A stretch of DNA of 64,000 nt from Candidatus Gottesmanbacteria bacterium (GTDB lineage: Bacteria; Patescibacteriota; Microgenomatia; UBA10105; UBA927), in contig CAWEKC010000005.1 in assembly GCA_963809665.1 (NCBI GenBank), positions 11,878 through 75,877 of the forward strand, in the 5' to 3' direction. A model generated the notes under the pieces. That model had not been told where the DNA came from. It worked only from the letters and a program-made list of their open reading frames with translations, and searched no databases. Each line of letters begins with the position of its first letter. The first letter of the stretch is position 1. The position numbers were made by a program, and so were the translations under genes. Shown one piece after another: positions 1 through 33,974 of this stretch.

Positions 1-517
1 CCAGCCGTAAGAAACAATACATAAATATGACCAACATGCTCATGAGCGGTATATCTTTGGCATCAGCACGCATTTGACCGATAATAGTCGGATAAAAAGC
101 AAAAAGGAGCGTGGTGGCTGCCGCAATAGGTACTACAAGACCTACTTCAATGGCCACACCGTAAAAAGCCGCGACTCCGAAACTTGCCAATAATACTTCG
201 CCCATATGGTGCGCATCAATAACCGGCAACAAATGCAGATGTTCGGCAAATATCCACGAAAACCCCGATGCTACGACAAACGGAAACGGCGGGTACACAT
301 CTTCGCCGAAGAGGTAAAAAAACGGGCTGTCGGTAAACAACGTTTTGCTTTTGAAATCATTAAGATATGCACGGTTTCCGGTAAGCCAAAATTTGATATT
401 CGCCCGTCCGAAGAAAAAACTCGACGGCTCATCCCACGTAAGCCCCGCGCCGTGGATCAGCATAAGCTGGACGCCGAATACAATGATTGCCAAAAATATT
501 CCTATATACTTCTTCAT
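1..517 (-). CDS. GT-C family glycosyltransferase (family 39 / ArnT-PMT-like), N-terminal part; gene continues beyond window start
   Basis: Manual minus-strand translation from ATG at 517..515 gives an uninterrupted membrane protein (MKKYIGIFLAIIVFGVQLMLIHGAGLTWDEPSSFFFGRANIKFWL...) with a WDE motif in the first loop like the two downstream paralogues. Its start overlaps the stop of the next gene in ATGA fashion. It is not in the ORF track because it is truncated by the window edge. Confidence 0.5.
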   Translation of the reverse strand, partial: MKKYIGIFLAIIVFGVQLMLIHGAGLTWDEPSSFFFGRANIKFWLTGNRAYLNDFKSKTLFTDSPFFYLFGEDVYPPFPFVVASGFSWIFAEHLHLLPVIDAHHMGEVLLASFGVAAFYGVAIEVGLVVPIAAATTLLFAFYPTIIGQMRADAKDIPLMSMLVIFMYCFLRL

Positions 518-2103
518 TGATTCCTCTTCCACAATCTACTGCCCCATCCCGGAACCGGAGTAAAATGCGATTTAATATACGCAACGTTTTCCGGCAAAAG
601 ATGTACAAGTCTCTCTGTACCTCCGTCATACAGATAATCGGCAGGGTGAGCGGATAAATACGTTGCTAAAGAGGGCGGCCCGTGAGAAATATTTGGCACA
701 AAATCATCAAGCGACACACAGCACATTGGATATCCGTCTGACCAAAATACCATTTTACCTTCCAGATCAACGACGCGGGCTGACAATGGCACGGTAACCA
801 CTAATCGGTCGAATTCTGCGCGCTGATCGGCATTTGTTGACAAAATCTTCGGAGCATTAACAGACTGGGTTACCGTGACAAGGACATATCCCAATCCAAC
901 CAACGCAATTGCAAGAGATTGATATCCGCCGACATGGGCAAGCCGGTCAAAAAAAAGAGATATACCATCAGCTGCATAATACGCCACAAATACAGCAGTC
1001 GGAATGAGATACTGGCTATACCTAACCGGAGAAAACTTTAGATATACAATACTAAGCAGTATAAACGTCAGTGCCAAAAGCAGTTCAATTTGCATTTTTT
1101 CCCTATTTCCCTGAGCCTTTACATACGGTGTAACCACGCGATATGCAGCAACGACAAATGCAAGTATCCATATCGCATGATTCACAAGTAACCCTGCTGA
1201 AATTGTACGACCGTCACCGCCGTAGAAGAAAGCGTTCGGGTAGAAAAATAAAAATGGCGCCAGATATTGCCCCCCCTGATAATACTTAGAGATTTCAAAC
1301 GGCATATTCACCACCGAGTACCATGTTACCTGCAGAGTCCCGGTTAGCACAGCCCAACCGAAAAATCCACATAGTACAATCAATATTCCTCCGCTCACGG
1401 CTTCCAGACCCGCCCAGGCAATCTTTTTTCGTTGCAGGCTGAACGACTGAATACTCACCATTGCCGCAACTGCCCACCCGACAAAAACAAGTGGCGCCAG
1501 TTTAATAAGAAATACCAACGATATTCCATACAATACTCCGCTCGTGAACCATACACGCATCGCGTGTATCTTTCTAATAGCGATCACTTCAGTAAGCAAG
1601 CCTGCGCATGCAAAAAGCATGGCTAGTATATCCGGCCTAACTTCCAAAAACTTGTCATACGGCATGGGCAGGAATGCAAGAATAATGACAGGAAGCAGGG
1701 CCCAACGCCACGACCGCGTATACCCAAAGAGAAACCAGAGAACACCGAGAAGTGCGAGAAATATGCCGAATGATAGCTCCCGCGCCGCGATAAATATCTG
1801 AAATGAAATGCCGTAAACCCAAATCAGCGGTGCTAATACCCACATAAATCCGGGTGAAAAGTACGTAATAAAATCAATGTATGGACGCTCCCCACGGGCA
1901 ACCTGTGCGGCCAAATGCAGGTGCAAAAATTCATCAATGTCGAAATACCTCATCTGGCCTACCTGCCAACGCCAAAATACAAGATATGCAAGAATTCCGG
2001 CAAGAAACAAGATAATAATAGTCTTCCATACATGTTTTTTTCCACCAAGATACGGCAGAAGAAAATTTTTTTGTTTTTGAACATACCACGACATGATACT
2101 CAT
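514..2103 (-). CDS. GT-C family glycosyltransferase (ArnT / PMT_2 / family 39-like polyprenyl-phosphate-sugar-dependent transferase)
   Basis: 529-aa polytopic membrane protein. The first extracytoplasmic loop carries the RYFDIDEF (DE) motif typical of ArnT/PMT GT-C enzymes. It has a soluble C-terminal domain and is a tandem paralogue of 2100..3650, with a 4-nt ATGA overlap with the upstream gene. Confidence 0.7.
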   Translation of the reverse strand: MSIMSWYVQKQKNFLLPYLGGKKHVWKTIIILFLAGILAYLVFWRWQVGQMRYFDIDEFLHLHLAAQVARGERPYIDFITYFSPGFMWVLAPLIWVYGISFQIFIAARELSFGIFLALLGVLWFLFGYTRSWRWALLPVIILAFLPMPYDKFLEVRPDILAMLFACAGLLTEVIAIRKIHAMRVWFTSGVLYGISLVFLIKLAPLVFVGWAVAAMVSIQSFSLQRKKIAWAGLEAVSGGILIVLCGFFGWAVLTGTLQVTWYSVVNMPFEISKYYQGGQYLAPFLFFYPNAFFYGGDGRTISAGLLVNHAIWILAFVVAAYRVVTPYVKAQGNREKMQIELLLALTFILLSIVYLKFSPVRYSQYLIPTAVFVAYYAADGISLFFDRLAHVGGYQSLAIALVGLGYVLVTVTQSVNAPKILSTNADQRAEFDRLVVTVPLSARVVDLEGKMVFWSDGYPMCCVSLDDFVPNISHGPPSLATYLSAHPADYLYDGGTERLVHLLPENVAYIKSHFTPVPGWGSRLWKRNQ

Positions 2104-3650
2104 AGTCTTTTTAATAATCTCCCCCCAAATCCCGGAACCGGCGTATAATGTGTGCTGATATACCTGCTGTCTTGGGCTGTGAATGCGGCAAGTCTATTGC
2201 TGTCTCCGTCATAAATATAATCTGCAGGGTGTTTGTCAATGTACTGTGCGAGCGGCAACGGCGGACGGCTCACAAAGGATAAAAATGAACCAAAATCAAA
2301 ACTGGAAATTGGGTATCCATCCCGCCAAAATACCATCCTCCCCTCAAGGTCCACAACGCGCGCGCTCAAGGGAACAGTCCGTAGAAGCGTGGTTAACTCC
2401 GCCATCTGCGATCTGTTCGTGTCCAGTAATTTCGGTCCATTCACGTCTTTATTCACCACGATCAATAGATACGCAAAACCGAGGAGTACGAGCACCAGCG
2501 ATAGATATCCGCCGGCACGCTCAAGCCAGTCAAAAAAACCACTAAATACATCCGCCGCATAGTATGCGACGAATACGGCAATCGGGATGAGGTACTGCGT
2601 ATGCTTCCAGGGAAAAAATTTTACATACGCCGCAGCACTCACAAAAAATACGCCTGCCACAAGAAGTTCAACAAACGTCTCGTTTTTTTTACCTGCCCTT
2701 ATTGGTGTCACCAGCCGATACGCGCCGCCAATTAATCCCACGATCCACATTGTGTGGTTGACAATAAGCCCAAGTGTTATCGTACGTCCGGTTCCCCCAT
2801 AAAAAAATGCGTTCGGGAAAAAAAACAGATCGGCTCCCATATAGTAATTAACTGTGCTTTTATATACTTCAAACGGCAGCTTCGTAAGCGAATACCATAC
2901 AACACTAAAGTGACCTTGAGCTGCCGCACCGAGGAAAAATAGTACCCACGGACCCGTAAGTCCAAGAAAAAACATAAGTATCTTAGGTAACCTAGGTAAC
3001 TTAGAATAAAAAGCCGATAAAACAGCAATTCCTGCCCCCACTGCTACAATCGGTACTGTTTTGGCAAGTACAAACAATGACGCGCTGTATACGAGTCCCG
3101 ACACGAACCATATCCAGTTTTTCTTTTCCCGAATCGCTATAATCTCCCCTACCACACCTAGTATTGCCAACAATGTCGCCAGATTATCAGGCCGAATCTC
3201 TAAAAATTTATCATACGGCATCGGCAAAAAAGCTAATAAAACAACCGGAAGTACTGCCCACTTCCAGCCTCGTGTTATGCCAAATAAATAACCTAAACTC
3301 GCTAATATCCCTAAAAATATGACAAAGGAAACAGTACGGGCCGCCGTAAAGACCTGAACGCTCACCCCATAAATCCAAAATATCGGTGCAAATACCCACA
3401 TAAATCCGGGCGTAAAGTACGAGAAAAAATCCGTGTACATATGCTCTCCCCGTGCCACCTGTGCCGTCCAATGCATATAGGAAAATTCATCAACATCAAA
3501 AAATCGCATGGCGCTGACACGAAACCGCCACACGAGAAGAAACAGGAGAAGTATGATAAGAATGATGTACGATACCTTCCTCATGAGATTCATTGTACTA
3601 TAGAGGTAATCATACGGTCTATTTCTTTTTTCTTTCACCACCTCGCTCAA
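2100..3650 (-). CDS. GT-C family glycosyltransferase (ArnT / PMT_2-like), tandem paralogue
   Basis: 516-aa membrane protein with RFFDVDEF motif and a conserved C-terminus (ARVVDLEG.MVFW.DGYP) shared with 514..2103. Its stop overlaps the next gene's start. Confidence 0.7.
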   Translation of the reverse strand: MSEVVKEKRNRPYDYLYSTMNLMRKVSYIILIILLLFLLVWRFRVSAMRFFDVDEFSYMHWTAQVARGEHMYTDFFSYFTPGFMWVFAPIFWIYGVSVQVFTAARTVSFVIFLGILASLGYLFGITRGWKWAVLPVVLLAFLPMPYDKFLEIRPDNLATLLAILGVVGEIIAIREKKNWIWFVSGLVYSASLFVLAKTVPIVAVGAGIAVLSAFYSKLPRLPKILMFFLGLTGPWVLFFLGAAAQGHFSVVWYSLTKLPFEVYKSTVNYYMGADLFFFPNAFFYGGTGRTITLGLIVNHTMWIVGLIGGAYRLVTPIRAGKKNETFVELLVAGVFFVSAAAYVKFFPWKHTQYLIPIAVFVAYYAADVFSGFFDWLERAGGYLSLVLVLLGFAYLLIVVNKDVNGPKLLDTNRSQMAELTTLLRTVPLSARVVDLEGRMVFWRDGYPISSFDFGSFLSFVSRPPLPLAQYIDKHPADYIYDGDSNRLAAFTAQDSRYISTHYTPVPGFGGRLLKRL

Positions 3651-3710
3651 AGAAAAAGCGGACGTAACCGTCTAAACATGTAATAATGGCATGGTCCATA
3701 TCTTCAAATA

Positions 3711-4487
3711 TTATCCTGCCGGCGGTGTCATGAAAGGATCTTTTCTCCCTACTGTGAGTTCATCACATGAAATAATTTCTTTCCTGTGAAATACCGGAAG
3801 TTGATATGGTTTAAAGATCAATGATCGCACATAATTGACTACTGAGCGCGTAGGGAGACGAAATTCGGTGATGTTCCGATTCCGAAAATCAACGGAGGAC
3901 CGTGAATAATAACTCGCTCCTTTCTTTGTTTGCCGATGCGCGCGTATCCTTCTGCCGGAAAGAAGCCTACGGATGTTTTTTTTAAATAATTCGAAGCCAT
4001 AGGACTGATAGAGCTGATAGATATCCCGGCTCGTCATAAATGACGTGATCTTAAACTGTATTTGGTCAATAATCGGCCCGGCATCAATCCGGGGAGAAAT
4101 CACATGGAGGGTCACACCTGTTTTCGCTTCTCCATTACGAAGAGGCCAAACACTCGTTAAACAACCGCGGTAGCTTGGGAGTGCAGAAAAGTGAATATTG
4201 TATGCTCGCCACGTTCCAACTTCATGAGTCCGTATGATCCTATCATATTCTAGTGAAAGAATGATACCATGTGGCGTCGTACGTCCCTCTTTTAAATTTC
4301 CAATAATACGTATACCAAGCTTTTGTGCGCACTTCACAAGCGATGGTTGCCATGTATCCATACCCGTATCTTCCTTATTGGGCAACACAGACATCTCTAT
4401 CGGACCGGAAACTTTTTGCAGATCCCGCAGATATTGCAATGCCGAACATGCGATGGAATTTTTACCGCAAAGGATTATGTTGGACAT
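3711..4487 (-). CDS. sugar N-formyltransferase (formyl_trans_N family, ArnA/FdtF/WlaRD-like)
   Basis: Formyltransferase catalytic motif YNIHFSALPSYRG...TGVTLHVISPRIDAGPII (SLLP/HxSLLPxxRG type). The start is chosen at MSNIILCG; the track ORF extends to 4532. Divergently arranged with the FdtA-like gene. Confidence 0.7.
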   Translation of the reverse strand: MSNIILCGKNSIACSALQYLRDLQKVSGPIEMSVLPNKEDTGMDTWQPSLVKCAQKLGIRIIGNLKEGRTTPHGIILSLEYDRIIRTHEVGTWRAYNIHFSALPSYRGCLTSVWPLRNGEAKTGVTLHVISPRIDAGPIIDQIQFKITSFMTSRDIYQLYQSYGFELFKKNIRRLLSGRRIRAHRQTKKGASYYSRSSVDFRNRNITEFRLPTRSVVNYVRSLIFKPYQLPVFHRKEIISCDELTVGRKDPFMTPPAG

Positions 4488-4582
4488 CTTTTTGCTCGTA
4501 ATTGCCGGTAGTGTCTTTCTCAAGATGGCCATATCATAGCGTCATGGAGCAAACCTTACAACTATGTTACAATTGCCGCGAA

Positions 4583-4990
4583 ATGACTTCGCCAAAAAAA
4601 ATAGTTTTCAACAAACACGGAGCTCCTGTCATCGGGTATTTGACTGCGCCGACCGTGCGGGAAATTCCCTTCCATATCCGGCGCGTATTCTGGACATATT
4701 TTACGCCGGAACGCATTACCCGCGGACGGCATGCCCATAAAAAAACGTCCATTGTACTCGTTGCCGCCACCGGAAAAATAATCGTTACAACCGAAACACT
4801 TGACGGCAGGAAAAAAACATTTGTACTCGATAAACCCAATGTGGGCCTCCTTATACCGCCGATGGTCTGGCACATTCAGCGCTATTCCCATACCGCGATC
4901 CAACTAGCTCTTGCCTCCCGTCCGTTTGAGGAGATGGAGTATATTCGTAATTACCAAACGTTTAAAGCGTATAAAAAAAACAAAAAGTAG
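4583..4990 (+). CDS. WxcM/FdtA-like dTDP-4-keto-6-deoxyhexose 3,4-ketoisomerase (cupin)
   Basis: ~135 aa with the RGRHAHKK motif (RGxHAH of the FdtA/WxcM C-terminal domain family). The start is taken at the internal ATG 4583. The stop TAG at 4988-4990 lies 8 nt before the GT2 start. Confidence 0.6.
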   Translation: MTSPKKIVFNKHGAPVIGYLTAPTVREIPFHIRRVFWTYFTPERITRGRHAHKKTSIVLVAATGKIIVTTETLDGRKKTFVLDKPNVGLLIPPMVWHIQRYSHTAIQLALASRPFEEMEYIRNYQTFKAYKKNKK

Positions 4991-4997
4991 CACCACA

Positions 4998-5679
4998 ATG
5001 GAATCATTGACTTTTATTATCCCCGCCTACAATGACGAAACGACGATAGAAACGGTCATCGATAAAACCGCTGACGTTGGTAAAAAACTTCGGATTCCTT
5101 TTGATATTTTAGTTATTAATGATGCAAGCAGAGATTCTACAGGACACATTCTTAAAAAACTTGAGAGACGTTACGCACATCTGCGTGTCATTACCCATAC
5201 TAAAAATGCTGGCTACGGTCAAACAATCAAAGAATTGTATCAGAAAGCAACTCACACATGGCTCTTTTCGTTGCCGGGTGACTATCAAATTGACCCCCGC
5301 GAGTTTCTAAAGATTTGGCAGCGTCGCGGTGAAGCAGATATGATCATTGGATGGCGCCGTATACGGGCTGACAGCCCAGCAAGACTTTATCAATCACATA
5401 TATATAATAAACTTTTATCTTTCATATTTAGTCTTCCTATACACGACGTAAATTCCGTGCGACTCATGAAAACGTCGATTATAACTACCGTTCAATTGTC
5501 ATCATTATCTGCGTTTGTTGATGCGGAACTTGCTATTCAAGCCCGTAAAGCACGGATTTCACGTAACCGAGGTGCCCATTGCACACCGTGCACGCGCAGG
5601 AACGGGAGCCAGCGGCGGGAAACTCACAACTATATTACCAACCATAAAAGATATGATCGTGTTCTTTTTTCGGTTATGA
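4998..5679 (+). CDS. GT2 polyprenyl-phosphate glycosyltransferase (DPM1/ArnC-like), frameshifted in this assembly near 5550
   Basis: MESLTFIIPAYNDE...VINDASRD...NAGYG is a GT2 signature. After ELAIQARKA the track frame runs into an implausible R-rich peptide, whereas the -1 frame reads GFHVTEVPIAHRARAGTGASGGKLTTILPTIKDMIVFFFRL*, the expected GT2 C-terminus. One extra base around 5551-5555 separates the two frames. The stop TGA at 5677-5679 overlaps the aminotransferase ATG. Confidence 0.65.
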
Positions 5680-6752
5680 TTCCGATTTTTGATCTCACCC
5701 GTGAGTATAAAACCATCGCAGCAGAGCTGACTCTTTCGTTTACCCGCACGGCAAAAAGGGGTATGTTTATCCTCGGCCAAAACGTATCGGTCTTTGAAAA
5801 GGAATTTGCTGACTTTACCGGGGTTACATACGCCGTTGGCGTGGCAAGCGGTACCGATGCCCTTACGCTCGGACTCAGGGCGCTTGGTATTCAACATGGC
5901 GATGAAGTCATCCTACCTGCAAACGCCTACCCAACGGCATTCGGTGTCGCTCTTAGCGGCGCGCGCATACGTCTTGTTGACGTTAAAGGCGACGGCACGA
6001 TGGATCCGGTGCGTCTTGCTGATACCGTTTCCAACCGTACCCGCGTCGTTATCCCCGTCCACTTGTACGGCAACCCCGCCGATGTCGTTTCCCTGATAAA
6101 AATAGTCAAAAATAAAAAAATTGCTTTGGTTGAAGATGCCGCGCAGGCTCATGGAACTGATTCGGCGGGGTCGCTGGGCGATATTGGCTGTTTCAGCTTT
6201 TACCCGACGAAAAACCTCGGGGCACTCGGTGATGCCGGCATAGTGGTGACAAATAAAAAATACATTGCCGACCGCATCACGCGACTTCGCATGTACGGGG
6301 AAACCAAGCGGTATGAGAGTATTGAGGTCTCCGGCGTCAGCCGGCTGGACGAACTACAGGCGGCTTTTCTTCGTGTTAAACTACACCACTTAAATGCTTG
6401 GGTTACCCGCCGACGTGATATCGCAAAACAATACATTGAAGAATTACGCGGCACCGGTGATATTCAATTTGTCACAAATAATACCCGGGGTGCCTATCAT
6501 GTGTTTGTCATCCGCACAAAACACCGGAACGCCCTCCGACAGTATCTCGCTGTCCGCGGTATCGGAACTGCAATTCACTACCCCGCGCCTATTCATCTCG
6601 TTCGTGCATTCCGGGATCTGGGATACAAAAGCGGTGATTTTCCTGTATCCGAGTCGCTCTCGCGGGAAATCCTCTCCATCCCGATGTTTCCGAGGCTTAC
6701 TGACGGCGAAATTCTCCGGGTGGTCCGAACTGTCAAAAAATATTTTCAATAG
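5676..6752 (+). CDS. DegT/DnrJ/EryC1/StrS family PLP-dependent sugar aminotransferase (ArnB/FdtB-like)
   Basis: MIPIFDLTREYK... with the full DegT-family fold sequence (GVASGTDALTL, DAAQAHG, SFYPTKNLGALGDAG). The track fuses it to the upstream GT2 because of the frameshift. The true start ATG 5676 overlaps the GT2 stop (ATGA). Confidence 0.8.
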   Translation: MIPIFDLTREYKTIAAELTLSFTRTAKRGMFILGQNVSVFEKEFADFTGVTYAVGVASGTDALTLGLRALGIQHGDEVILPANAYPTAFGVALSGARIRLVDVKGDGTMDPVRLADTVSNRTRVVIPVHLYGNPADVVSLIKIVKNKKIALVEDAAQAHGTDSAGSLGDIGCFSFYPTKNLGALGDAGIVVTNKKYIADRITRLRMYGETKRYESIEVSGVSRLDELQAAFLRVKLHHLNAWVTRRRDIAKQYIEELRGTGDIQFVTNNTRGAYHVFVIRTKHRNALRQYLAVRGIGTAIHYPAPIHLVRAFRDLGYKSGDFPVSESLSREILSIPMFPRLTDGEILRVVRTVKKYFQ

Positions 6753-8414
6753 CTACCAGTGATACACGCGAAAAAGGCCGAGGTTGTAGATCTCTGTAAG
6801 AAACGGGTATGTCGTTGACAAATTCCCCAGTCCGCCGTCCGCCATTTCCTGCGGACCGAAAAATATATAGTGAAGATTATTGGCACCCAAAAACTCCTTC
6901 GCCTGCATTGGGCTCATGGTACCGGCGAAAAAATCCTTTACTACCATCTCTTTTTTCTCCGTATTGACCGTATTGGCGTGCCCCACATACACCGTGTTGC
7001 CGGAGATTACCGGCAGATAATTACCTGCCGTGGTTTCTGAAAGGATCACCGTATCGCGGCTCGTGTGGTCCTGGATAAATATCATCGTGGTAATATAATC
7101 TTTTAAAGGATACATCACATAACTTCCGGTCGGCACCAGTGGTTGGGTTGCGCTGATTTTCTGATCCAAAAATTCCTTTTGCCACCGCCACGAGGAATAC
7201 ATTTGTCCCAGACCCATGGTTACCAAAAGGACCGGGACAACGATAAACAGGTACCGGTACGGCTTAATACATACCCGATACAGCGAATAAAAAAGGTAAC
7301 ACGCAAGGAATCCCAATGGTACCTGCGGCATCATTTCCGTAAACCTCAGGGGCGATTCCTGCGGGATAAATTGAAATGCGATAATACATACAAACCATGC
7401 GATAGCCCAGGCAACGAAAATAAATAACCTGCGTTCACGCTTAATAAGCACCAATACCCCTCCGATTGCACCCAATAGAAGTATCGGTCCTACAGCCAAA
7501 AGATACTCCCTCAGGATAAACGGCGGCGGATGCAGTATGGAATAATCAATGAGCCGTTTCCACGGATATACTTTTACGATAAGGGAAAAATATAAAAGCG
7601 TCGGGGTGCTGATCGCGCCGGCAACCGCGGGTCCCGCAACGCGTTCAATTATCCATGACCGGATCTCGCGTCGCGCCAGCGGCAATCTGTACAAAAAATC
7701 AATGATGACAAATACCCCCCACGCGGCGAACACGAACCCGAGACCAGCAGGAAATACGATGCCCAGCATAAACGCCAAAAACCCAAGCATCACCCAATTC
7801 CCCGCTTTTCTCATGACTTCGCGCTGGGCCATCGCAATCAGAAGAAATACAATTATTGCTTGGCCTGCCAGCATATGCGGGACAAACGTAATCCGCTGTA
7901 ACGAATCCATGATGCTCCACCACGGCATGTACCCGCCGAACCGCCACTCATTCTGATGAAAGACAAGCATCGGCCAGGATGCGGCGGTAACGGCAAGTAA
8001 AAATGCCAATAGTTGCCATCTATAGCGGAATATTTCAAACGCCCATTTGGCGGCATACGCTATAAGAAATAAGAGTGCAGCAGCAAGAACTATCCGTGCC
8101 GCGTGATAGGTATCTCCGCTATTGGACCATGGCACGTCATACCATGCGGACACTTTTCCCATCAGGAGGTACAGTATCTGGACATAGGACCCCTTGTGAG
8201 GTTCGGACGTGTACTTTTCCGTTACCGAAATAGCCCCTTCCCTCCCCTCGCGTATCCGGGAAAGGTAAAAATTATAATCCGTGTAAAAATTATGGACGAG
8301 TTCAAACTGCCGGTTAGGGTGCAGATCACCTTGACGGGACAACTCGTAAAACATCGGCACGAGAGAAAACAGCAAGAAGAAAAAAACTAATAGTCCCCAA
8401 TATAATCGCCGCAT
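6753..8414 (-). CDS. large polytopic membrane protein, putative GT-C-type glycosyltransferase
   Basis: 553 aa with more than 10 predicted TM helices and a soluble C-terminal domain. It is convergent with the aminotransferase gene. The family is not recognised confidently. Confidence 0.45.
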   Translation of the reverse strand: MRRLYWGLLVFFFLLFSLVPMFYELSRQGDLHPNRQFELVHNFYTDYNFYLSRIREGREGAISVTEKYTSEPHKGSYVQILYLLMGKVSAWYDVPWSNSGDTYHAARIVLAAALLFLIAYAAKWAFEIFRYRWQLLAFLLAVTAASWPMLVFHQNEWRFGGYMPWWSIMDSLQRITFVPHMLAGQAIIVFLLIAMAQREVMRKAGNWVMLGFLAFMLGIVFPAGLGFVFAAWGVFVIIDFLYRLPLARREIRSWIIERVAGPAVAGAISTPTLLYFSLIVKVYPWKRLIDYSILHPPPFILREYLLAVGPILLLGAIGGVLVLIKRERRLFIFVAWAIAWFVCIIAFQFIPQESPLRFTEMMPQVPLGFLACYLFYSLYRVCIKPYRYLFIVVPVLLVTMGLGQMYSSWRWQKEFLDQKISATQPLVPTGSYVMYPLKDYITTMIFIQDHTSRDTVILSETTAGNYLPVISGNTVYVGHANTVNTEKKEMVVKDFFAGTMSPMQAKEFLGANNLHYIFFGPQEMADGGLGNLSTTYPFLTEIYNLGLFRVYHW

Positions 8415-8448
8415 ATGTCACCTATTCTACAAGTTTTTATGATACTAT

Positions 8449-9081
8449 GTGTGTGTGGAAAATGATATGTCTTCTTATAAAAAAGCTGCCGCAGTAGCTG
8501 TTGTGATTACCGTTATCGGCATTGTGTTGGTCATAATAAATTACCGTCAGATATCAGGGAGACAGGGTACTATCGTTATTCCGGCCGGGAATACGTACCT
8601 CGGGCCTACTCCCACACAGGCGCCCGGTACTGCAGCGTGGCAAACGGTAAAAGGACACATCTATCCCTATACCCTGAGTGTTCCGGGGACGATTACGCTT
8701 ACAACATTCCCCAACGACCCATACGACATGTACGCCCTCGGGGGCAACGACCCTTCTTCAAATGTCCTCATTGGCGTTGATGATCTTTCAAAAAATGCCG
8801 ATCGCAATGCGTATATCAATCAACCAAAAACCGTCTATATCAACCAATGGTGGAAACAATTCAGTGTGCTTACCGGCGTTAAACGTATCGACCCGTTTAC
8901 AAACAGCAAAGGGCTTAAGGGATATAAAGTAAAATTTCTTGCTACCGGCGGCGAGAGCCCGAGTCTGGATATTTTTTTTGAAGTCGCGGCAGCACCCCAA
9001 TATGTCATCCATTTAAGTAACGGTCAGTTGGACGCGGCCGTATTTGACAGGATTGTTGACAGTGTCGGGTGGGAGCAATAA
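8449..9081 (+). CDS. hypothetical membrane-anchored protein
   Basis: 210-aa ORF with one N-terminal TM helix (AAAVAVVITVIGIVLVII) and a secreted domain. Its TAA overlaps the next ATG by 1 nt (TAATG). Confidence 0.4.
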   Translation: MCVENDMSSYKKAAAVAVVITVIGIVLVIINYRQISGRQGTIVIPAGNTYLGPTPTQAPGTAAWQTVKGHIYPYTLSVPGTITLTTFPNDPYDMYALGGNDPSSNVLIGVDDLSKNADRNAYINQPKTVYINQWWKQFSVLTGVKRIDPFTNSKGLKGYKVKFLATGGESPSLDIFFEVAAAPQYVIHLSNGQLDAAVFDRIVDSVGWEQ

Positions 9082-10934
9082 TGAAAAAATCCTCCCTGCC
9101 TCTTATCTTTATTGCAGGATGCATGCTCGCATTATTTATCCGACTGCTGCTTATTCCCAATCCGGGTTTTGAAGCGGATATTTCTTTTTGGAAATCCTGG
9201 GGGCTTGCGGTTTTGGACTTCGGTATCATCAAAGGGTTATCTGTCACGAATTTCAACTACCCCACACCGTTCGGGTATTTCCTTGCACTCATGCCGGCCG
9301 TGTACAGGATCTTCGCCGACCCGCATAATTTCGATCAATATTGGCAAAATACCAATGTATTATTCCTGATCATTTCCAAACTGCCGGCAGTTATAGCAGA
9401 CTTCGGGATTGCCGGACTGATTCTTTGGATCGGCAGGAATGCCAAAAAAATCGGATTCCCTGATCTTTCAATGCCGTTCTATGCAGTGCTGGCTCTTGCT
9501 TTTTTACTCAATCCCGTTTCATGGATGGACAGCGCATGGTGGGGCCAGGTTGACAGCCTCGGGGTGATCGTCTTTTTTGGTGCGTTTCTTCTCGTGGTTA
9601 CGAAAAGACCGTTTTTAGCGGGTGTTGTGTACATGATCGCCATGCTGACCAAACTCCAAAACATGATTTACGGACCGATTTTTTTTCTGTTTATCTGGCA
9701 ATACTTGGGTTTTAACGGACTCGTACGCAGTCTTGCAGGGTCGCTGGTCACGTTCATTGGCCTCAATATTGAATTCATACTTTCCGGCAGCATGTGGAAG
9801 GTCATTGAGTCTCTTACGGGCAATTACGATTATTTCCCTTGGCTCTCGCTTAATGCGTTCAATCTCTGGTGGATCGTATCCGGCGCCCGCGGGATGCAAT
9901 TTTCGGACAAATTGCTATCAGTGGGTCTTGCTAACGCCAAAACCGTTGGCCTTACCCTCTTCTCTGCCGGATATTTGCTTGCAGCGTTACTTCTGAAACC
10001 GTTCGCGTTTCTTAAAAAAAATAAGGACGACCCGCCAACAGTTGTCTATCAATTCCTTACCGCTATCGTTATTGCCAACGCTTCCTTTTTCCTGTTTCAG
10101 ACGGAATCACATGACCGCTATGCATACCCTCTTATTGTCTTCCTGCTCCTCTGGGGTGCTTTTTGGATCCGGCGCCATTTGACGACAAAAGAAATGCCGG
10201 ATGTTTTTACCAGTAAACCGTTTCGCGCAGTTGCCTTTTTCTATGTGCTCTTCACGCTCTTTTACTTCTATAACCTCCATACGGCGTTGGTGTTTAATTA
10301 TCCGGGAAACGGTGTGCCCATCCTCTCATCGCTCATTCAACCCAACCTGACCATCAGCATATCGCTTCTTTTTATCGGTTTGTTTTTCTTCTTTCTGTAC
10401 ATCATCCGGCACGATACATCAATCTGGACCTTCATGGCGCCTTCCGCGTTGGTCATTTGTATGCTTACGTCAAAAAATATGCCGCTTATTACACATGCGC
10501 CGGTTTTCCTTACTGCAATGACCCCGGTTTCCGCATCCCAGGATTATGGAATACGGCAGATAAACATGCCGGTCAACGCATTTTCGGGATTTGATAAATG
10601 GGGATCCCTGTCGGTCCAGTATGCCTTCTACCGTCACGGGATCGGGACGCACGCCAACAGCACACAAACATTTGACGTACATAAATATTTCAGCCGGTTT
10701 TCATTCGACTATGGCATCGATACCGAGGCCGGACCCAAAGGAACGACCATCTTTGAAGTAATCGGTGATGACAAAAAACTTTTTGTATCGGAAAAAATCG
10801 GCCGGTATGATCCGCCGCGGCATGCGGATGTTGATATTACGGGAGTGAGTACCCTGAAACTCGTCGTTACCGATGCCGGGGACGGTATTACCGATGACCA
10901 TGCAGATTGGCTGAATCCGAAATTAAGTTGGTAA
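9081..10934 (+). CDS. GT-C-like polytopic membrane protein with C-terminal NPCBM (NEW2) carbohydrate-binding domain
   Basis: The N-terminal ~480 aa are multi-TM. The C-terminal ~130 aa match the NPCBM domain motifs closely (GIGTHANS..., FSFDYGIDTEAG, TTIFEVIGDDKKLFVS, LKLVVTDAGDGITDDHADWLNPKL). The start is taken at ATG 9081 (MKKSSLPLIF). Confidence 0.6.
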   Translation: MKKSSLPLIFIAGCMLALFIRLLLIPNPGFEADISFWKSWGLAVLDFGIIKGLSVTNFNYPTPFGYFLALMPAVYRIFADPHNFDQYWQNTNVLFLIISKLPAVIADFGIAGLILWIGRNAKKIGFPDLSMPFYAVLALAFLLNPVSWMDSAWWGQVDSLGVIVFFGAFLLVVTKRPFLAGVVYMIAMLTKLQNMIYGPIFFLFIWQYLGFNGLVRSLAGSLVTFIGLNIEFILSGSMWKVIESLTGNYDYFPWLSLNAFNLWWIVSGARGMQFSDKLLSVGLANAKTVGLTLFSAGYLLAALLLKPFAFLKKNKDDPPTVVYQFLTAIVIANASFFLFQTESHDRYAYPLIVFLLLWGAFWIRRHLTTKEMPDVFTSKPFRAVAFFYVLFTLFYFYNLHTALVFNYPGNGVPILSSLIQPNLTISISLLFIGLFFFFLYIIRHDTSIWTFMAPSALVICMLTSKNMPLITHAPVFLTAMTPVSASQDYGIRQINMPVNAFSGFDKWGSLSVQYAFYRHGIGTHANSTQTFDVHKYFSRFSFDYGIDTEAGPKGTTIFEVIGDDKKLFVSEKIGRYDPPRHADVDITGVSTLKLVVTDAGDGITDDHADWLNPKLSW

Positions 10935-11021
10935 ACGGCTGAACCAGTTTTTTCGCGCGCAAATGGGAACCCTGAAAGGGACGTGAGAACGAAAAACTTG
11001 GTGAAGCCGCAAAAATGTCAT

Positions 11022-13349: not shown

Positions 13350-13355
13350 GATCGT

Positions 13356-13565
13356 ATGGCAAAAAGACATGTTCGCCGGGTACATCATACGCCGGTGCGC
13401 CACAAAGCACATACGTCCGGAGACTACCTCGTGGTAGTACGCGGATGGATGTTTGTTGTCGCATTCGCCCTCATGTTGGGGATTGGAGCGATTGTCGGGC
13501 AGTTTATCAGCGCCTACATCGCCTCTTCGACCCCGACAGTAGCAGGGATCACAACAACGAAATAA
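13356..13565 (+). CDS. small hypothetical membrane protein
   Basis: 69-aa ORF with a TM helix, located 7 nt after the previous gene and followed by a terminator hairpin. Confidence 0.3.
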   Translation: MAKRHVRRVHHTPVRHKAHTSGDYLVVVRGWMFVVAFALMLGIGAIVGQFISAYIASSTPTVAGITTTK

Positions 13566-13588
13566 TCAAAGAAGCATAGGCATCCGGT

Positions 13589-13616
13589 CATAGGATTACG
13601 GCCTATGTTTTTTTTG
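13589..13616 (+). terminator. rho-independent terminator
   Basis: A CATAGG/CCTATG 6-bp stem with a 7-nt loop is followed by a run of nine T (13608-13616). A longer alternative stem runs 13575-13607. Confidence 0.5.
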
Positions 13617-13689
13617 TGGACCTGACCGGATTCGAACCGGTGATCTCCGCAATGCGAATGCGGCGCATTACCAACTGTGCTACAGGCCC
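13617..13689 (-). tRNA. tRNA-Ala (anticodon CGC)
   Basis: Cloverleaf folded by hand: acceptor GGGCCUG with a G3:U70 Ala identity pair, anticodon stem CCGCA/UGCGG, loop UUCGCAU, T-arm ACCGG-UUCGAAU-CCGGU. No encoded CCA. Confidence 0.75.
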
Positions 13690-13701
13690 CTTGCCGATGG
13701 G

Positions 13702-13772
13702 TGGACCCGAGGGGAATTGAACCCCTTTCTACTCCATGCCATGGAGTCGTTCTACCGGTATACTACGGGCCC
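13702..13772 (-). tRNA. tRNA-Ala (anticodon GGC)
   Basis: Acceptor GGGCCCG with G3:U70, anticodon stem ACUCC/GGAGU with loop AUGGCAU, T-arm AGGGG-UUCAAUU-CCCCU. The D-stem is weak with one A-A mismatch. Confidence 0.65.
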
Positions 13773-13797
13773 GTTGGAACAGTTAATTATATCAAAT

Positions 13798-14880: not shown

Positions 14881-14939
14881 ACAAAAGGGTGCCCTTCAGG
14901 GTATCACGTAAAAATTTATTGTGCAAATCGGCAGTAGAA

Positions 14940-16565: not shown

Positions 16566-16662
16566 AAACTATTGGGACAAATCTTAGGGATTCATGAAAT
16601 AGATTGTCACTACGAGGAAACGCTTAATCTAAACGGTATTTAACCACGTTTACCTGCTCTTG

Positions 16663-17262
16663 TCAATGCCGTTCTTCCAGCGGAGTTATCACCCTTACCG
16701 TTTCCCGTAGCGCAAAATCCACCAATTTTTCACCGATTTTCAACTCTTCTTTTAACCAATCAGCCCCCTGGGTCAAGTCTCTTCCTCTTACCATGGCGCT
16801 TTTGATTGATTCCGGCTCCCGTGCCGATGAAGTTGACCAAAAATCAACAGACATCGTAGCGTCATTCCATGCCACCCGGGTTGTGATTTCAATGTGCCGG
16901 TCTGTCCCGCTTGACGTGCCGACACTAACCCTCAGGCGGTTGAGTGAGTCCTTGCCTTTATACGCCTGCACTCTGACTTGTTCATCCTTATCTCTCTTTT
17001 CACTCTTACCCAAAAAATCAGCTACACAATTATGCAAGTCTGTAAAATCATCAACGCGGCCAAGATTAATAAATATACCATCCACTTCTGAATCTCTAAA
17101 TTTCTGATCTTGCCGGAGAAGTTTAATGAATTGTTTAATTTTATTATCCGTAAGGCGGACACCGCGTTTGTAGGCTTCTCTCGCTTCTTTCTTTTCCTTC
17201 TTTTCAAGCTTCGTCTGTTCCAGATGCTTCTTCATCGCTTTTTCTATATTTTCAATCGACAT
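16663..17262 (-). CDS. hypothetical protein
   Basis: 199-aa ORF with a K/E-rich N-terminus and no recognisable family. Confidence 0.35.
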   Translation of the reverse strand: MSIENIEKAMKKHLEQTKLEKKEKKEAREAYKRGVRLTDNKIKQFIKLLRQDQKFRDSEVDGIFINLGRVDDFTDLHNCVADFLGKSEKRDKDEQVRVQAYKGKDSLNRLRVSVGTSSGTDRHIEITTRVAWNDATMSVDFWSTSSAREPESIKSAMVRGRDLTQGADWLKEELKIGEKLVDFALRETVRVITPLEERH

Positions 17263-17322
17263 AATGTTCTCCTTCCGGCAGGTTAGCGAGTGTTATATCA
17301 CAACGGCGCCGCAAAAGGCAAA

Positions 17323-19458: not shown

Positions 19459-19490
19459 ATGAAGTCGATTATACGTGATACAATCTTCTC

Positions 19491-20711
19491 ATGAAAGTTG
19501 CGGTTGTCGGCGGCGGTTTCACGGGACTTGCCGCGGCATATGAACTGACAAAACATGGGGCCACGGTGACGCTGTTTGAATCTGCACCGGTAGTTGGGGG
19601 GTTGGCGCACGGATTCAAAAAGGCCGGTTGGACATGGCACCTAGAATATGCCTATCACCACTGGTTTACCGGTGACCGCGCGGCACTGGATCTGATTAAA
19701 GAATTAGGCCTCACACAGAAACTTATTATTACCCGGCCGATTACTGCTTCCCTGTATGATGGAAAGCCGTATGAATTAGATTCACCCGTGAATTTATTAA
19801 CATTTCCGGGGCTTTCACTATCCGATAAGTTCCGTACTGCGGCGCTCCTTGGATTTCTTAAAATCAATCCATTTTGGAAACCTTTGGAAAATATCTCTGC
19901 TGAACACCTTTTAACCTCAATAGGTGGTCGGCGTTCATACGCCATGCTTTGGGAACCGCTACTTGCCGGCAAGTTCGGTACCTTGGCACCAACTATCCAG
20001 GCAGCTTGGTTCTGGGCGCGGATAAAAAAGCGGACGCCGCGTTTAGTATATATGGAGGGAGGCTTCCATACGCTGATTGCTGCACTCGAAAGCACTATAA
20101 AAAAAGGGGGCGGTATAATCCGCACGAATACCACGGTTGCTTCAATGAATGACCTGTCAGGATTTGATAAAATTTTATTTACCGTACCCAGCCCGGTTGC
20201 CCAAAAAATCGTTCCTCAACTCCGGATCGATCTTATCCCCCATCTCACGGCACAAACCTTAATTCTGGAAACCGACAGCCCGGTTCTGAAAAACGTGTAT
20301 TGGCTTAATATCACGGACCGTTCGTTTCCGTTTTTAGCGGCAGTATTCCACACAAATTTTATGGAAAAAAAATATTACGGTGGTCACCACCTGACATACT
20401 TCGGCAATTATCTTCCGGCGGATCACCCCTATCTTTCCATGACCAAAGATCAATTATTGAAAAAATTCATGCCGTATATCAAACGTCTTTCACAAAATTT
20501 TCCAATAAAAATTTTAGACTCTTTTATATTTACCGGATCGTTTGCCCAGCCGGTCCACCAACTGCATTATTCATCCCATACACCAAAACTTATTACATCC
20601 ATTCCGAATGTCTATATGGCCAACATGGACAGTATCGTACCCTGGGATCGTGGGACCAATTATGCTATTGAATTAGGACAAAAGGCAGCGCAGAAAATCA
20701 TGGAAACATGA
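19491..20711 (+). CDS. FAD-dependent oxidoreductase (amine oxidase / protoporphyrinogen oxidase-like)
   Basis: N-terminal dinucleotide-binding motif VAVVGGGFTGLAAAYEL...LFE...GGL. 406 aa. Stop overlaps the next gene's start. Confidence 0.65.
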   Translation: MKVAVVGGGFTGLAAAYELTKHGATVTLFESAPVVGGLAHGFKKAGWTWHLEYAYHHWFTGDRAALDLIKELGLTQKLIITRPITASLYDGKPYELDSPVNLLTFPGLSLSDKFRTAALLGFLKINPFWKPLENISAEHLLTSIGGRRSYAMLWEPLLAGKFGTLAPTIQAAWFWARIKKRTPRLVYMEGGFHTLIAALESTIKKGGGIIRTNTTVASMNDLSGFDKILFTVPSPVAQKIVPQLRIDLIPHLTAQTLILETDSPVLKNVYWLNITDRSFPFLAAVFHTNFMEKKYYGGHHLTYFGNYLPADHPYLSMTKDQLLKKFMPYIKRLSQNFPIKILDSFIFTGSFAQPVHQLHYSSHTPKLITSIPNVYMANMDSIVPWDRGTNYAIELGQKAAQKIMET

Positions 20712-22333
20712 AAAAACTACTTATTTTTATCATAATTTTTGGAGCCATTCTGCGCTTTACCGCAATCAACTGGGATTCGTTCGGCGCGTTCCACCCGGAC
20801 GAAAGAAATATTTCCTGGGCCGTGACACGTATCCGGTTTTTCTCGCAGATGAACCCGAAATTTTTCGCGTATGGGGGGTTGCCGGTCTATCTGTACCGCG
20901 CGCTGGGCGAAGGCGTTGTAGCGGCGACACATAACGATATCTGGCTTGCAGACTGGGGGCACATTGCCGTTATCGGGCGCTCCGTTTCTGCCGTACTGTC
21001 GACCATAAGCATATTCTTAATCTACGTAGCCGGCGCCGCGTATTTCACTCCCGGAGTCGGACTTCTTGCGGCTTCACTCCTTGCGTTTTCCCCATGGGCA
21101 ATACGGGAAGCGCATTTCGAAACCACCGAAACCATGCTGGTATTTTTCCTACTGGCTATGAGTATCGTTGCGCGCCGGCTATTCCAAAAACCAAACCGCC
21201 GCAGCGTCGTACTTATCGGGTTAGTGTGGGGCCTCGCTATGGCGGCCAAAACTACGAGCATACTGTTCGGCCTTATACCAACCGCAGCCATCTGGTTTCC
21301 GCATCACATCTTTAAAAATATTCCTAAAAAAATCCTGTACACGTTCATGTTGGGCTGTACATCTGTTTTTATTTTCTTCCTTTTCTCTCCGTATACGCTC
21401 CTGGACTTCACACATTTCCGCGAGTCCATGACGTATGAATCCGGAGTGGCCCTGGGGCGTTTTTCGGTTGTCTATACACTTCAGTTTCTGAATACCACTC
21501 CGTATCTTTTCCAACTGCAAACAATGCTCTGGCAGGCGGGGCCGTTAGGTATCATCGGAATGTTCGGTCTTATCGGACTGGTAATCATAGTGTTCAGGAA
21601 AAAATTTTATCTTGTGCCGTTGTTACTATTCCCCGTTCTCTATTTTAGTTGGGTCGGTTCGTGGTATGCAAAATTCAACCGCTACAACGTGCCGTTCTTA
21701 CCGTTTGTCACCATTGCGGCGGCATGGTTTTGTGTTGTCATCAGTAAACGTTTTCGTATAGCCGGCACAGCGTTAACTCTGCTTGTACTTTCCGCAACCA
21801 TCTTGTGGGGACTGGCTAATTGGACTGTATACCTGCGGCCCCAAACGCGTTTGACTGCATCCGAATGGATGTTTACCCATATTCCCTCAGGTGCCACGAT
21901 CTACACGGAACACTGGAATGACGGACTGCCGATCGACCTGCCTGCGCAGGCAGGCCTGCCGGATGCAGTTAGGTATAACCGCGAACTACTTACAGTATAC
22001 GACGAAGACAATGCAGCCAAAAAAAACTACTATGCCGATAAGCTTGTCACCGGAGATTTCATCGTCCTATCGACCCGGCGTATGTGGGCTACGATGCCGC
22101 GGCTTGGTGAAAAATATCCGCTGACAAAATTATTTTACCAACGGTTATTAGACGGATCTTTAGGATACAAAGAGGTCGGCCGCTTTACGTCCTATCCGCA
22201 ACTATTCGGCGTCTCTGTCAATGATGACGGCGCGGAAGAATCCATCCAGGTCTTTGATCATCCCACGGTCTTAATTTTCCAAAACGTAGCGCACTATTCC
22301 AATGGGGAATATCTCACATTGTTGACGCCATAA
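20708..22333 (+). CDS. GT-C family 39 / ArnT-like glycosyltransferase
   Basis: 541-aa multi-TM protein with an N-terminal FHPDERN DE-motif loop and a soluble C-terminal domain. Carries the palindromic element at 21937-21954 (LPAQAG). Confidence 0.7.
   Translation: MKKLLIFIIIFGAILRFTAINWDSFGAFHPDERNISWAVTRIRFFSQMNPKFFAYGGLPVYLYRALGEGVVAATHNDIWLADWGHIAVIGRSVSAVLSTISIFLIYVAGAAYFTPGVGLLAASLLAFSPWAIREAHFETTETMLVFFLLAMSIVARRLFQKPNRRSVVLIGLVWGLAMAAKTTSILFGLIPTAAIWFPHHIFKNIPKKILYTFMLGCTSVFIFFLFSPYTLLDFTHFRESMTYESGVALGRFSVVYTLQFLNTTPYLFQLQTMLWQAGPLGIIGMFGLIGLVIIVFRKKFYLVPLLLFPVLYFSWVGSWYAKFNRYNVPFLPFVTIAAAWFCVVISKRFRIAGTALTLLVLSATILWGLANWTVYLRPQTRLTASEWMFTHIPSGATIYTEHWNDGLPIDLPAQAGLPDAVRYNRELLTVYDEDNAAKKNYYADKLVTGDFIVLSTRRMWATMPRLGEKYPLTKLFYQRLLDGSLGYKEVGRFTSYPQLFGVSVNDDGAEESIQVFDHPTVLIFQNVAHYSNGEYLTLLTP
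21937..21954. repeat. palindromic element copy D (CCTGCCTGCGCAGGCAGG), in frame in the GT39-like gene (LPAQAG)
   Basis: 18-nt perfect palindrome, followed by a third partial half-site CCTGCC. Confidence 0.8.
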
Positions 22334-32447: not shown

Positions 32448-32475
32448 ATAAAAACCGCTCCAATGTCCCCCAGCC

Positions 32476-32591
32476 TTGACCTATCTTCCCGGTTCCTTGC
32501 GGAATAGGTATTGTCAGCGCTGACGCGTTTCACTTCCGAGTTCGGAATGGGATCGGGTGGGTCCACGTCGCTCAAAAGACTGGAAGACACC
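32476..32591 (-). rRNA. rrf: 5S ribosomal RNA
   Basis: The reverse complement contains CCCAUUCCGAACUCGGAAGUGAAACGCGUCAGCGC (loop C / helix III consensus) and complementary termini (GGUGUCUUCC / GGAAGAUAGG). Confidence 0.75.
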
Positions 32592-33325: not shown

Positions 33326-33361
<36 letters not shown>

Positions 33362-33472
33362 CTTTTAACCGGCGAACAGCCGGACCCTTGGGACCTTCTC
33401 CAGCCCCAGGATAGGATGAGCCGACATCGAGGTGCCAAACCGCCTCGTCGCTATGGACTCTCGGAAGCGATC

Positions 33473-33505
<33 letters not shown>

Positions 33506-33830: not shown

Positions 33831-33861
<31 letters not shown>

Positions 33862-33939: not shown

Positions 33940-33974
<35 letters not shown>

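Follow-up and report, generated by a model that had tools for sequence, protein, structure and literature searches.

Multi-component glycosylation systems of monoderm bacteria, such as CsbB/GtcA/YfhO, GtlA/GtlB, GacI-J/GacK/GacL and the streptococcal Pgf system (PMC8035078, PMC12041528), follow a scheme composed of a GT-A lipid-sugar synthase, a flippase and a GT-C transferase (PMC8035078). The present study concerns a DNA stretch of 64,000 nucleotides (the window), and mainly its positions 1-22333, which carry a predicted formamido-sugar cassette, a small GT2 glycosyltransferase and eight GT-C-like open reading frames (ORFs). Those homologues of the window proteins that carry a name come from Candidatus Gottesmanbacteria (Candidate Phyla Radiation, CPR; Microgenomates), an origin that fits the 23S rRNA gene with its two group I introns, the ATP-dependent DNA ligase and the compact gene arrangement. 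Like the three-component systems, the window encodes a GT-A/GT2 enzyme, likely of the polyprenyl-phosphate class, beside GT-C transferases in an organism without lipopolysaccharide (LPS); acidic motifs follow the first transmembrane (TM) helix of the GT-C proteins, one GT-C-like protein bears a carbohydrate-binding domain, and the GT-A enzyme, as GacI, is devoid of TM helices. Unlike those systems, which move glucose, galactose or N-acetylglucosamine from uridine diphosphate (UDP) donors, the window surrounds its GT2 with enzymes for a predicted deoxythymidine diphosphate (dTDP)-3-formamido-3,6-dideoxyhexose, has no recognisable GtrA or Wzx flippase, and clusters at least six GT-C-type families, two of them without a Pfam model.

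The cassette itself resembles the Fdt/Qdt/WlaR pathways (FdtA/QdtA, FdtB/QdtB, FdtC/QdtC, FdtF/QdtF/WlaRD), with which it shares all three enzyme types, their catalytic residues and the best solved relatives. In those pathways cytoplasmic Leloir enzymes use the dTDP-sugar for O-antigen or S-layer repeat units, whereas the only cassette-encoded transferase in the window appears to be of the polyprenyl-phosphate type, and its neighbours are GT-C genes. As in O-antigen and capsule loci, conserved flanks (73-79% identity in the related locus L008) enclose a replaceable cassette (21-27%), and formyl- and acetyltransferases swap in one slot; unlike in such loci, the conserved frame consists of GT-C transferases rather than Wzx/Wzy/Wzz, and the genome is the reduced one of a CPR bacterium. 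Taken singly, the parts are all of known kinds, and their arrangement follows the logic of the known three-component systems. The combination is new: a rare dTDP-sugar pathway built around a probable lipid-sugar synthase, N-acyl exchange, and a dense and diverse GT-C cluster in a CPR genome.

We read the locus as a multi-component transmembrane glycosylation island, a reading to which we give a probability of about 55%, in which dTDP-Fuc3NFo or dTDP-Qui3NFo (the galacto and gluco forms of the formamido sugar) would provide the sugar for polyprenyl phosphate and then for GT-C transfer outside the membrane. The pathway would run as follows: (i) The FdtA/QdtA-type enzyme would isomerise dTDP-4-keto-6-deoxyglucose, supplied by RmlA and RmlB encoded elsewhere. 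(ii) The QdtB-like DegT enzyme would aminate C-3. (iii) The WlaRD-like formyltransferase would N-formylate the amine, giving the dTDP-3-formamido-3,6-dideoxyhexose. (iv) The 226-residue GT2, judging from its family and context, would move the sugar onto polyprenyl phosphate. (v) A flippase would turn the lipid-linked sugar to the outer side of the membrane. (vi) A GT-C enzyme, most likely the ArnT-like protein of family A encoded directly downstream of the formyltransferase gene, would pass the sugar to a protein or cell-wall glycopolymer that serves as the extracytoplasmic acceptor. N-acyl exchange among relatives may then lead to strain-level diversity of surface glycans. No description of lipid-linked 3-acylamido-3,6-dideoxyhexoses, of this gene arrangement or of GT-C families A and B was found in the searchable literature.

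Sugar-building enzymes of the cassette

The first-pass annotation placed a sugar N-formyltransferase, an FdtA-like ketoisomerase, a DegT aminotransferase and a GT2 side by side, and profile searches agree on all four (PF00551, PF05523, PF01041 and PF00535, respectively); the order FdtA-DegT-GT2 given there was mistaken, as the GT2 gene lies between the other two. By homology, the three sugar-building enzymes are assigned to the Fdt/Qdt type.

The formyltransferase matches PF00551 at 3.3e-12, with 47 bits where the cut-off is 26.1. Its best solved relatives, all of them sugar C-3 N-formyltransferases, are 7n7a (3.6e-49), WlaRD (9e-47), the FdtF-type 5uij (2e-42) and QdtF (2e-38), and its matches to the C-4 enzymes ArnA (8e-11) and VioF (2e-6) are far weaker. 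Read from the sequence, its motif residues are N112 and H114 in YNIHFSALPSYRG and D150 in RIDAGPI, an Asn-His-Asp set which we take to be the catalytic triad of N10-formyltetrahydrofolate transferases. An ankyrin domain is missing, a likeness to WlaRD rather than to FdtF and QdtF. The homology predicts dTDP-Qui3N or dTDP-Fuc3N as the substrate. The exact sequence is not present in a collection of 5.8 billion proteins, where its best match is 83% identical and its family A neighbour is found at 100% identity; possibly, the gene is absent from the deposited record through a missed or different gene call. The sole return of a formyltransferase-based search of genome contigs was a distant Clostridia locus (24% identity).

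The FdtA-like protein matches PF05523 (the WxcM/FdtA cupin family) at 5.5e-32 and the FdtA and QdtA structures at about 1e-18. Its H50-A-H52 aligns with HAH of FdtA and HSH of QdtA, the His-x-His pair being kept. Examination of a further position shows that His97 (in VWHIQ) aligns with the His of FdtA VWHEM, whereas 7n67, presumably a gluco-type enzyme that makes Qui3N, has Arg there (MWREM). We assume that this position influences the stereochemistry of the product and that wild-type QdtA likewise carries Arg; on this assumed role, His97 would favour the galacto product (Fuc3N) over the gluco product, though not decisively.

The DegT enzyme matches PF01041 at 2.6e-89 and contains the pyridoxal-phosphate lysine K179 within SFYPTK. 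Solved C-3 enzymes are matched in the range of 1e-80 to 1e-93 (QdtB 5e-87, DesV 2.5e-80), with a WlaRG-type enzyme at 1.7e-67, and ArnB is weaker, at 2e-35 to 1e-37. Because both the formyltransferase and the aminotransferase match C-3 enzymes best, the predicted product of the cassette is dTDP-3-formamido-3,6-dideoxyhexose (Fuc3NFo or Qui3NFo). Of the 3-/4-formamido-deoxyhexose proposed earlier, the 3-formamido-3,6-dideoxy form is thus retained and the 4-formamido form is not, the C-3 enzymes matching far better.

The same comparisons bear on a true Arn-like system, in which a 4-amino sugar would carry the formyl group only transiently: after loading onto undecaprenyl phosphate the group would be removed, and the sugar would be transferred in its cationic amino form. 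The first-pass annotation had drawn an analogy to both Arn and Fdt, and a formyltransferase, an aminotransferase, an ArnC-like GT2 and an ArnT-like GT-C do together recall the Arn system (PmrHFIJKLM; ArnB, ArnA, ArnC, ArnD, ArnT, ArnE/F), the GT2 and family A having ArnC and ArnT as their top sequence or structural relatives. However, the E-values of the formyltransferase are 1e-38 to 1e-49 for 3-N enzymes as opposed to 8e-11 for ArnA, the aminotransferase differs as widely between C-3 enzymes and ArnB (see above), and the FdtA-type 3,4-ketoisomerase has no role in the synthesis of 4-amino-4-deoxyarabinose (Ara4N). The predicted chemistry is thus at C-3 rather than C-4, on a 6-deoxyhexose presumably carried by dTDP, as opposed to the UDP-pentose of Arn. 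Among the window ORFs we found no ArnA decarboxylase domain, no ArnD-type deformylase (nor any deacetylase-family protein) and no ArnE/F-like flippase (nor any SMR-type protein); the GT2 lacks the two TM helices of ArnC, and lipid A is not available as an acceptor in a CPR bacterium. Moreover, the replacement of the formyltransferase by acetyltransferases in related loci implies a stable N-acyl group. The Fdt side of the analogy holds, and an Arn-like system is largely refuted and, in our judgement, barely credible.

GT-C proteins and cassette exchange in related loci

Eight GT-C paralogues had been proposed within 22 kb. Eight GT-C-like ORFs are indeed present, but they fall into at least six families and are not all paralogues: four are firm members of GT-C or of the GT-C clan, a fifth (514-2103) is included through its 49% identity to 2100-3650, the only close paralogue pair, and three are provisional. 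Structure comparison of models found the GT-C fold in 2100-3650 (family A; AlphaFold predicted local distance difference test, pLDDT, 89.4 and predicted template modelling score, pTM, 0.91) and in 6753-8414 (family B; pLDDT 95.8). The fold of the family A model is that of an ArnT-like GT-C, and family B resembles STT3/AglB/AftA, including an oligosaccharyltransferase (OST)-like C-terminal domain. No Pfam, NCBIfam or PDB sequence match was obtained for 514-2103 or for 2100-3650, the latter even with a 43-sequence profile; family B has no Pfam match, and PDB sequence and profile searches of both families returned nothing useful, fold comparison alone being successful. About 210 matches were found for family A and 1283 cluster representatives (at E<=1e-3) for family B. 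In hhalign the profiles of the two families align with a probability of 75% over 414 columns; for the family A profile against the PMT_2 and NPCBM proteins as single sequences the value is about 1% or less, such single-sequence comparison being uninformative.

The acidic DE-type motif on which the GT-C assignment had been made to depend is present. All 43 family A sequences share D52, D54 and E55, which directly follow TM1 in the model; 514-2103 has RYFDIDEF after TM1, and D46 is invariant in family B. The PMT_2 protein, for which the suggested profile PF13231 is matched above its cut-off (1.9e-10), has about 11 TM helices and H-P-D-E-R after TM1. The DUF2298 protein matches PF10060 at 2.9e-95 and TIGR03662 at 3.9e-138, and we take DUF2298 to belong to the GT-C clan; neither of these two proteins has a PDB match in phmmer. 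GT-C status is weakly supported for two other proteins. One, with orthologues in L003 and L008, combines an NPCBM domain (1.5e-33) with a GT87 match below the cut-off (E 0.004) and an E-A-D motif after TM1. The other reaches 27.2 bits for YfhO, against a cut-off of 28.5 and over its C-terminal 46 residues only, and 2.8e-5 for the C terminus of PgfM1; its layout (TM bundle, large loop, final TM helix) is the YfhO architecture, and its L008 orthologue scores 29.1 bits. The truncated ORF at the window edge is provisionally GT-C-like by its topology and a W-D-E-P motif after TM1; it has no Pfam match and is 66% identical to a 566-residue protein 3' of the family A gene in L002.

In related Gottesmanbacteria loci (designated here by L numbers) the GT-C frame is kept at 59-79% identity. 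L011 (83-90% identity) has the arrangement of the window, in which FdtA diverges from the formyltransferase, followed by family A. In L010 the formyltransferase (62% identical) lies directly upstream of family A, and an Acyl_transf_3 gene separates it from FdtA. L014 and L006 share with the window the layout of FdtA, 226-residue GT2 and DegT (in L006 82%, 64% and 75% identical, respectively) and have a GNAT acetyltransferase in the formyltransferase slot, followed in L014 by a family A gene. L013 contains the same GT2-DegT pair and family A, together with FdtA and a hexapeptide acetyltransferase, an enzyme type which also occurs in L003 and L008. The slot for the N-acyl enzyme is thus exchangeable among formyl, GNAT-acetyl and hexapeptide-acetyl types. 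In L008/L009 the whole cassette is different: the flanks match those of the window (YfhO-like 73%, NPCBM 79%, 210-residue protein 79%, family B 76%), and a non-orthologous cassette (GT2 21%, a hexapeptide transferase, DegT 27%) without FdtA lies between family B and family A.

In all four loci with the full cassette on the contig (window, L006, L013 and L014), FdtA and a QdtB-like DegT accompany the 226-residue GT2 subfamily; L012 is consistent with this, within the limits of its noisy gene calls. A small GT2 always forms part of the cassette, and the subfamily to which it belongs goes with the sugar-building enzymes and not with the flanks. Such co-variation beside a conserved GT-C frame would be expected of a GT2 that takes the cassette product as its donor and of a GT-C frame that delivers this product outside the membrane, and it gives circumstantial support to that scheme. 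The locus looks like a strain-variable surface-glycosylation island.

The small GT2: reading frame, class and donor

In the window as given, a single ORF of 613 residues contains both the GT2 and the DegT domains. Three-frame translation places the conserved GT2 C terminus (GFHVTEVPIAHRARAGTGASGG...FFFRL, followed by the stop) in another frame, and dropping one base near 5546-5552 yields a 226-residue GT2 whose TGA stop overlaps the DegT ATG (ATGA). The GT2 orthologue in L006 is intact (226 residues, 64% identity, no gaps), and its DNA places the extra window base in GC[A]C-GGATTT; more than 100 homologues, of 224-235 residues, have intact reading frames. In addition, L012 (ENA ERZ25039554 contig_122137), an independent contig 97.9% identical to window positions 2918-6171, lacks exactly A5552, which restores the GCC codon seen in L006. 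With 19 gap openings in 3.2 kb relative to the window and fragmented gene calls, L012 looks like an uncorrected long-read assembly, usable for single-site checks but itself unreliable. An assembly error or a variant at the strain level probably explains the frameshift. The possibility of a naturally fused GT2-DegT protein was considered and rejected, since the homologues are all separate proteins of about 226 residues and L012 lacks the extra base.

If the GT2 were nevertheless a genuine pseudogene or an aberrant fusion with DegT, the sugar would not be made or not be transferred, and in this strain the island would be in decay. Such a broken pathway would account for the extra A5552, for the frame shift after residue ~184 with read-through to DegT, and for the position of the base outside any homopolymer run; it accords poorly with the remaining GT2 frame, which is intact and 64-73% identical to homologues without gaps, with the intact state of all neighbouring genes, and with L012, where the GCC codon is found as in L006 (L012 is, however, rich in indels, and the missing base could itself be an error). 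On balance we hold a broken pathway to be quite improbable.

Among solved structures, ArnC (1e-10) and GtrB (1e-6) are the only matches of the corrected GT2. Near-full-length NCBIfam alignments are those to AglJ (2e-15), ArnC (9e-14) and Dol-P-hexose transferase (1.6e-7); PgfS aligns to about two-thirds of the protein and other GT2 families only to its N-terminal nucleotide-binding half. The C-terminal E-V-P-I..R.R.G..AS segment aligns with polyprenyl-phosphate enzymes, and the GT2 likely, though not provenly, belongs to that class. The earlier description as DPM1/ArnC-like is in keeping with these relatives, for a gene that is frameshifted as assembled.

Several observations weigh against the proposed island. 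As assembled, A5552 removes the conserved C-terminal E-x-P...R..G.S segment of the GT2 and joins its frame to DegT. All NCBIfam matches of the GT2 lie far below the equivalog cut-offs, and no TM helix is predicted in the 226-residue protein, the C-terminal helices of the ArnC/GtrB type being missing. L-P-G-D-Y-Q (D95), of which the orthologues share PGDYQ, stands in the region of the D-A-D motif that we take to be the canonical metal-binding motif of DPM1/ArnC/GtrB, and here the second Asp alone seems to be kept. For DPM1-type enzymes, the use of dTDP-sugars as donors is not, to our knowledge, established. No RmlA or RmlB was found among the scanned window ORFs (several smaller ORFs beyond 22 kb were outside the scan), and dTDP-4-keto-6-deoxyglucose must therefore come from elsewhere; no GtrA-, ArnE/F- or Wzx-like flippase was found in the window. 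Finally, family A retains 59-68% identity across loci with different cassettes, so that no obvious link exists between its donor specificity and the formyl group. As for the missing helices, a TM-less cytoplasmic GT-A that makes a C55-P-sugar with a membrane partner is described in GacI/GacJ (PMC8035078).

Some of these properties would suit an ordinary cytoplasmic Leloir transferase that adds Fuc3NFo or Qui3NFo to an oligosaccharide linked to a lipid diphosphate, as in S-layer or O-antigen synthesis, with the GT-C proteins acting as polymerases, ligases, oligosaccharyltransferases or users of other donors (polyprenyl-P-hexoses). A GT2 without TM helices and without the canonical DAD motif, its sub-threshold family assignments, the likeness of family B to STT3/AglB/AftA with an OST-like domain, and the further GT2 genes in related loci are all compatible with this alternative, and known Fuc3NAc and Qui3NAc pathways use dTDP-sugars directly (PMC2943079, S-layer glycan review). 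Yet the 22 kb contain no recognisable initiating phosphoglycosyltransferase, Wzx or Wzy, and polyprenyl-phosphate enzymes provide the only solved GT2 relatives, the near-full-length family alignments and the counterpart of the C-terminal segment; moreover, the GT2 is tightly embedded beside ArnT-like GT-C genes in several genomes. We therefore consider a Leloir transferase unlikely.

For the transmembrane island, then, the route proposed at first pass (loading onto polyprenyl phosphate by the GT2 and transfer outside by GT-C enzymes) is supported by the enzyme classes, the ArnT-like fold, the operon coupling and the co-variation; the lipid-linked intermediate and the acceptor we infer. A more specific proposal can be offered only tentatively, and we lean against it at present: that a polyprenyl-P-linked 3-acylamido-3,6-dideoxyhexose, made from a dTDP donor by a DPM1/ArnC-type enzyme, would serve as the extracytoplasmic donor for GT-C families undescribed in databases, its N-acyl cassette being swapped between strains. 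On that proposal the surface of these episymbiotic, LPS-less bacteria would vary in an O-antigen-like manner, with type IV pilins or Pro/Thr-rich surface proteins as candidate acceptors.

Flippase and acceptor candidates, gene neighbourhood and implications

Small multi-TM ORFs of the window lie far from the cassette, the nearest to flippase size having 142 residues and 4 TM helices (48490-48918). Proteins of 158-162 residues without a Pfam match are encoded between the GT-C genes of L006 (5676-6164, 6168-6647 and 9516-10004) and L014 (4191-4670 and 4673-5149); in the three L006 proteins the N-terminal half is hydrophobic and the C-terminal half soluble, and such proteins are not found in the window. 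They are candidates either for the flippase or for the membrane partner of the TM-less GT2.

Directly 3' of the PMT_2 gene lies a gene for a secreted dockerin protein with a long Pro/Thr-rich linker (23191-24465, plus strand), followed by one for a secreted cohesin-domain protein (24495-25682, plus strand). The cohesin gene is repetitive at 24980-25462 (plus strand), where the opposite strand reads as a (GVGV)n-like ORF (25022-25375) and the coding strand as a low-complexity linker. Pro/Thr-rich linkers are known from Actinobacteria as classic sites of O-glycosylation by PMT-type GT-C enzymes, for which reason these secreted proteins are candidate acceptors. In five related loci (L002, L003, L006, L008/L009 and L010) a GT2 and methyltransferases come after the family A gene, and beyond them lie a large TPR protein and two to three type IV pilin-like (N_methyl) genes. 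The latter lie a few genes beyond family A, on the side away from the acyltransferase, and the equivalent part of the window would be beyond position 1. Since pilin-like genes occur near family A in these loci, type IV pilins are likewise candidate acceptors.

Positions 1-22333 are nearly all coding, and the features are listed in Table 1. From the window edge, the minus strand carries the truncated gene, the two family A genes and the formyltransferase gene; the three membrane-protein genes, on the same strand as the formyltransferase gene and 3' of it, are coupled by ATGA stop/start overlaps (the ATG of the truncated gene, at 517-515, overlaps the stop of 514-2103). After the intergenic gap, the plus strand carries FdtA, GT2 and DegT. 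A shared divergent promoter region of about 50 bp had been suggested here: the 51-bp gap is real, and conserved in L011, but a promoter scan of it found 4 sites versus 3.1 expected, no better than chance. DegT is followed by family B, the 210-residue protein (one TM helix, 79% identical to its syntenic L008 orthologue), the NPCBM and YfhO-like proteins, two tRNA-Ala genes, a LysM-M23 peptidase, Rho and a 199-residue ORF without an assigned role, and then by the DUF2298 protein, the oxidoreductase and the PMT_2 protein. The last two genes overlap by 4 nt; the oxidoreductase has an FAD amine-oxidase/phytoene-desaturase fold (NCBIfam NF005560, 'hypothetical protein', 359.9 bits, above the cut-off) and may modify the sugar or the polyprenyl carrier.

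Table 1. Features of window positions 1-22333 (TM, transmembrane)
Feature	Position	Strand	Evidence or remark
Truncated third tandem multi-TM protein, N-terminal 172 residues; provisionally GT-C-like, own family	1..517	-	Gene runs off window start
Family A GT-C paralogue 2, 529 residues	514..2103	-	~11 TM helices
Family A GT-C paralogue 1, 497 residues from ATG 3593; ORF reaches TTG 3650	2100..3593	-	
Predicted sugar 3-N-formyltransferase, 273 residues, WlaRD/FdtF/QdtF type	3711..4532	-	PF00551 and solved relatives
Divergent intergenic region, 51 bp, formyltransferase/FdtA	4533..4582	.	
Predicted FdtA/QdtA-type dTDP-4-keto-6-deoxyglucose 3,4-ketoisomerase, 135 residues	4583..4990	+	PF05523
Small GT2, probable polyprenyl-phosphate glycosyltransferase type, 226 residues without A5552	4998..5679	+	PF00535 1.9e-17
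Predicted DegT-family C-3 aminotransferase, 358 residues, QdtB/DesV-like	5676..6752	+	PF01041
Family B GT-C, 553 residues, OST/AftA-like C-terminal domain	6753..8414	-	
Conserved single-TM protein, 210 residues	8449..9081	+	No family match
Multi-TM protein (~10 TM helices) with C-terminal NPCBM domain; candidate GT87-like GT-C	9069..10934	+	
YfhO/PgfM1-like large membrane protein, 788 residues	10983..13349	+	
Tandem tRNA-Ala (anticodons CGC, GGC), between YfhO-like and LysM-M23 peptidase genes	13616-13689, 13700-13772	-	
DUF2298/chlor_Arch_YYY membrane protein, 711 residues	17323..19458	-	PF10060, TIGR03662
FAD amine-oxidase-fold oxidoreductase	19491..20711	+	PF01593 5.5e-24
PMT_2 family (ArnT/PMT-like) GT-C, 541 residues	20708..22333	+	PF13231

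Elsewhere in the window, the 23S rRNA gene (32731-36955, minus strand) spans 4.2 kb because of its two group I introns (33027-33251 and 33997-34222), and ORFs inside it (e.g., 34335-34910) possibly encode homing endonucleases. A 5S rRNA gene (32468-32584) and a tRNA-Ala(TGC) gene (37196-37269) were also identified, and no 16S gene is adjacent to the 23S gene on the side bearing this tRNA.

The surfaces of CPR/Patescibacteria are almost unstudied, though these bacteria are host-attached and phage-exposed. The soluble enzymes of the cassette are small and resemble crystallised homologues, so that the sugar pathway and the acceptor of the GT2 are testable in vitro without culture. If the proposed island is correct, polyprenyl-P-Fuc3NFo or polyprenyl-P-Qui3NFo would be a new lipid-linked donor, the DPM1/ArnC-type enzymes would be extended to dTDP-dideoxy-amino sugars, and at least two unannotated GT-C families would be defined. 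The exchange of formyl and acetyl enzymes would then represent an O-antigen-like swapping of cassettes in a monoderm-like bacterium with a reduced genome.

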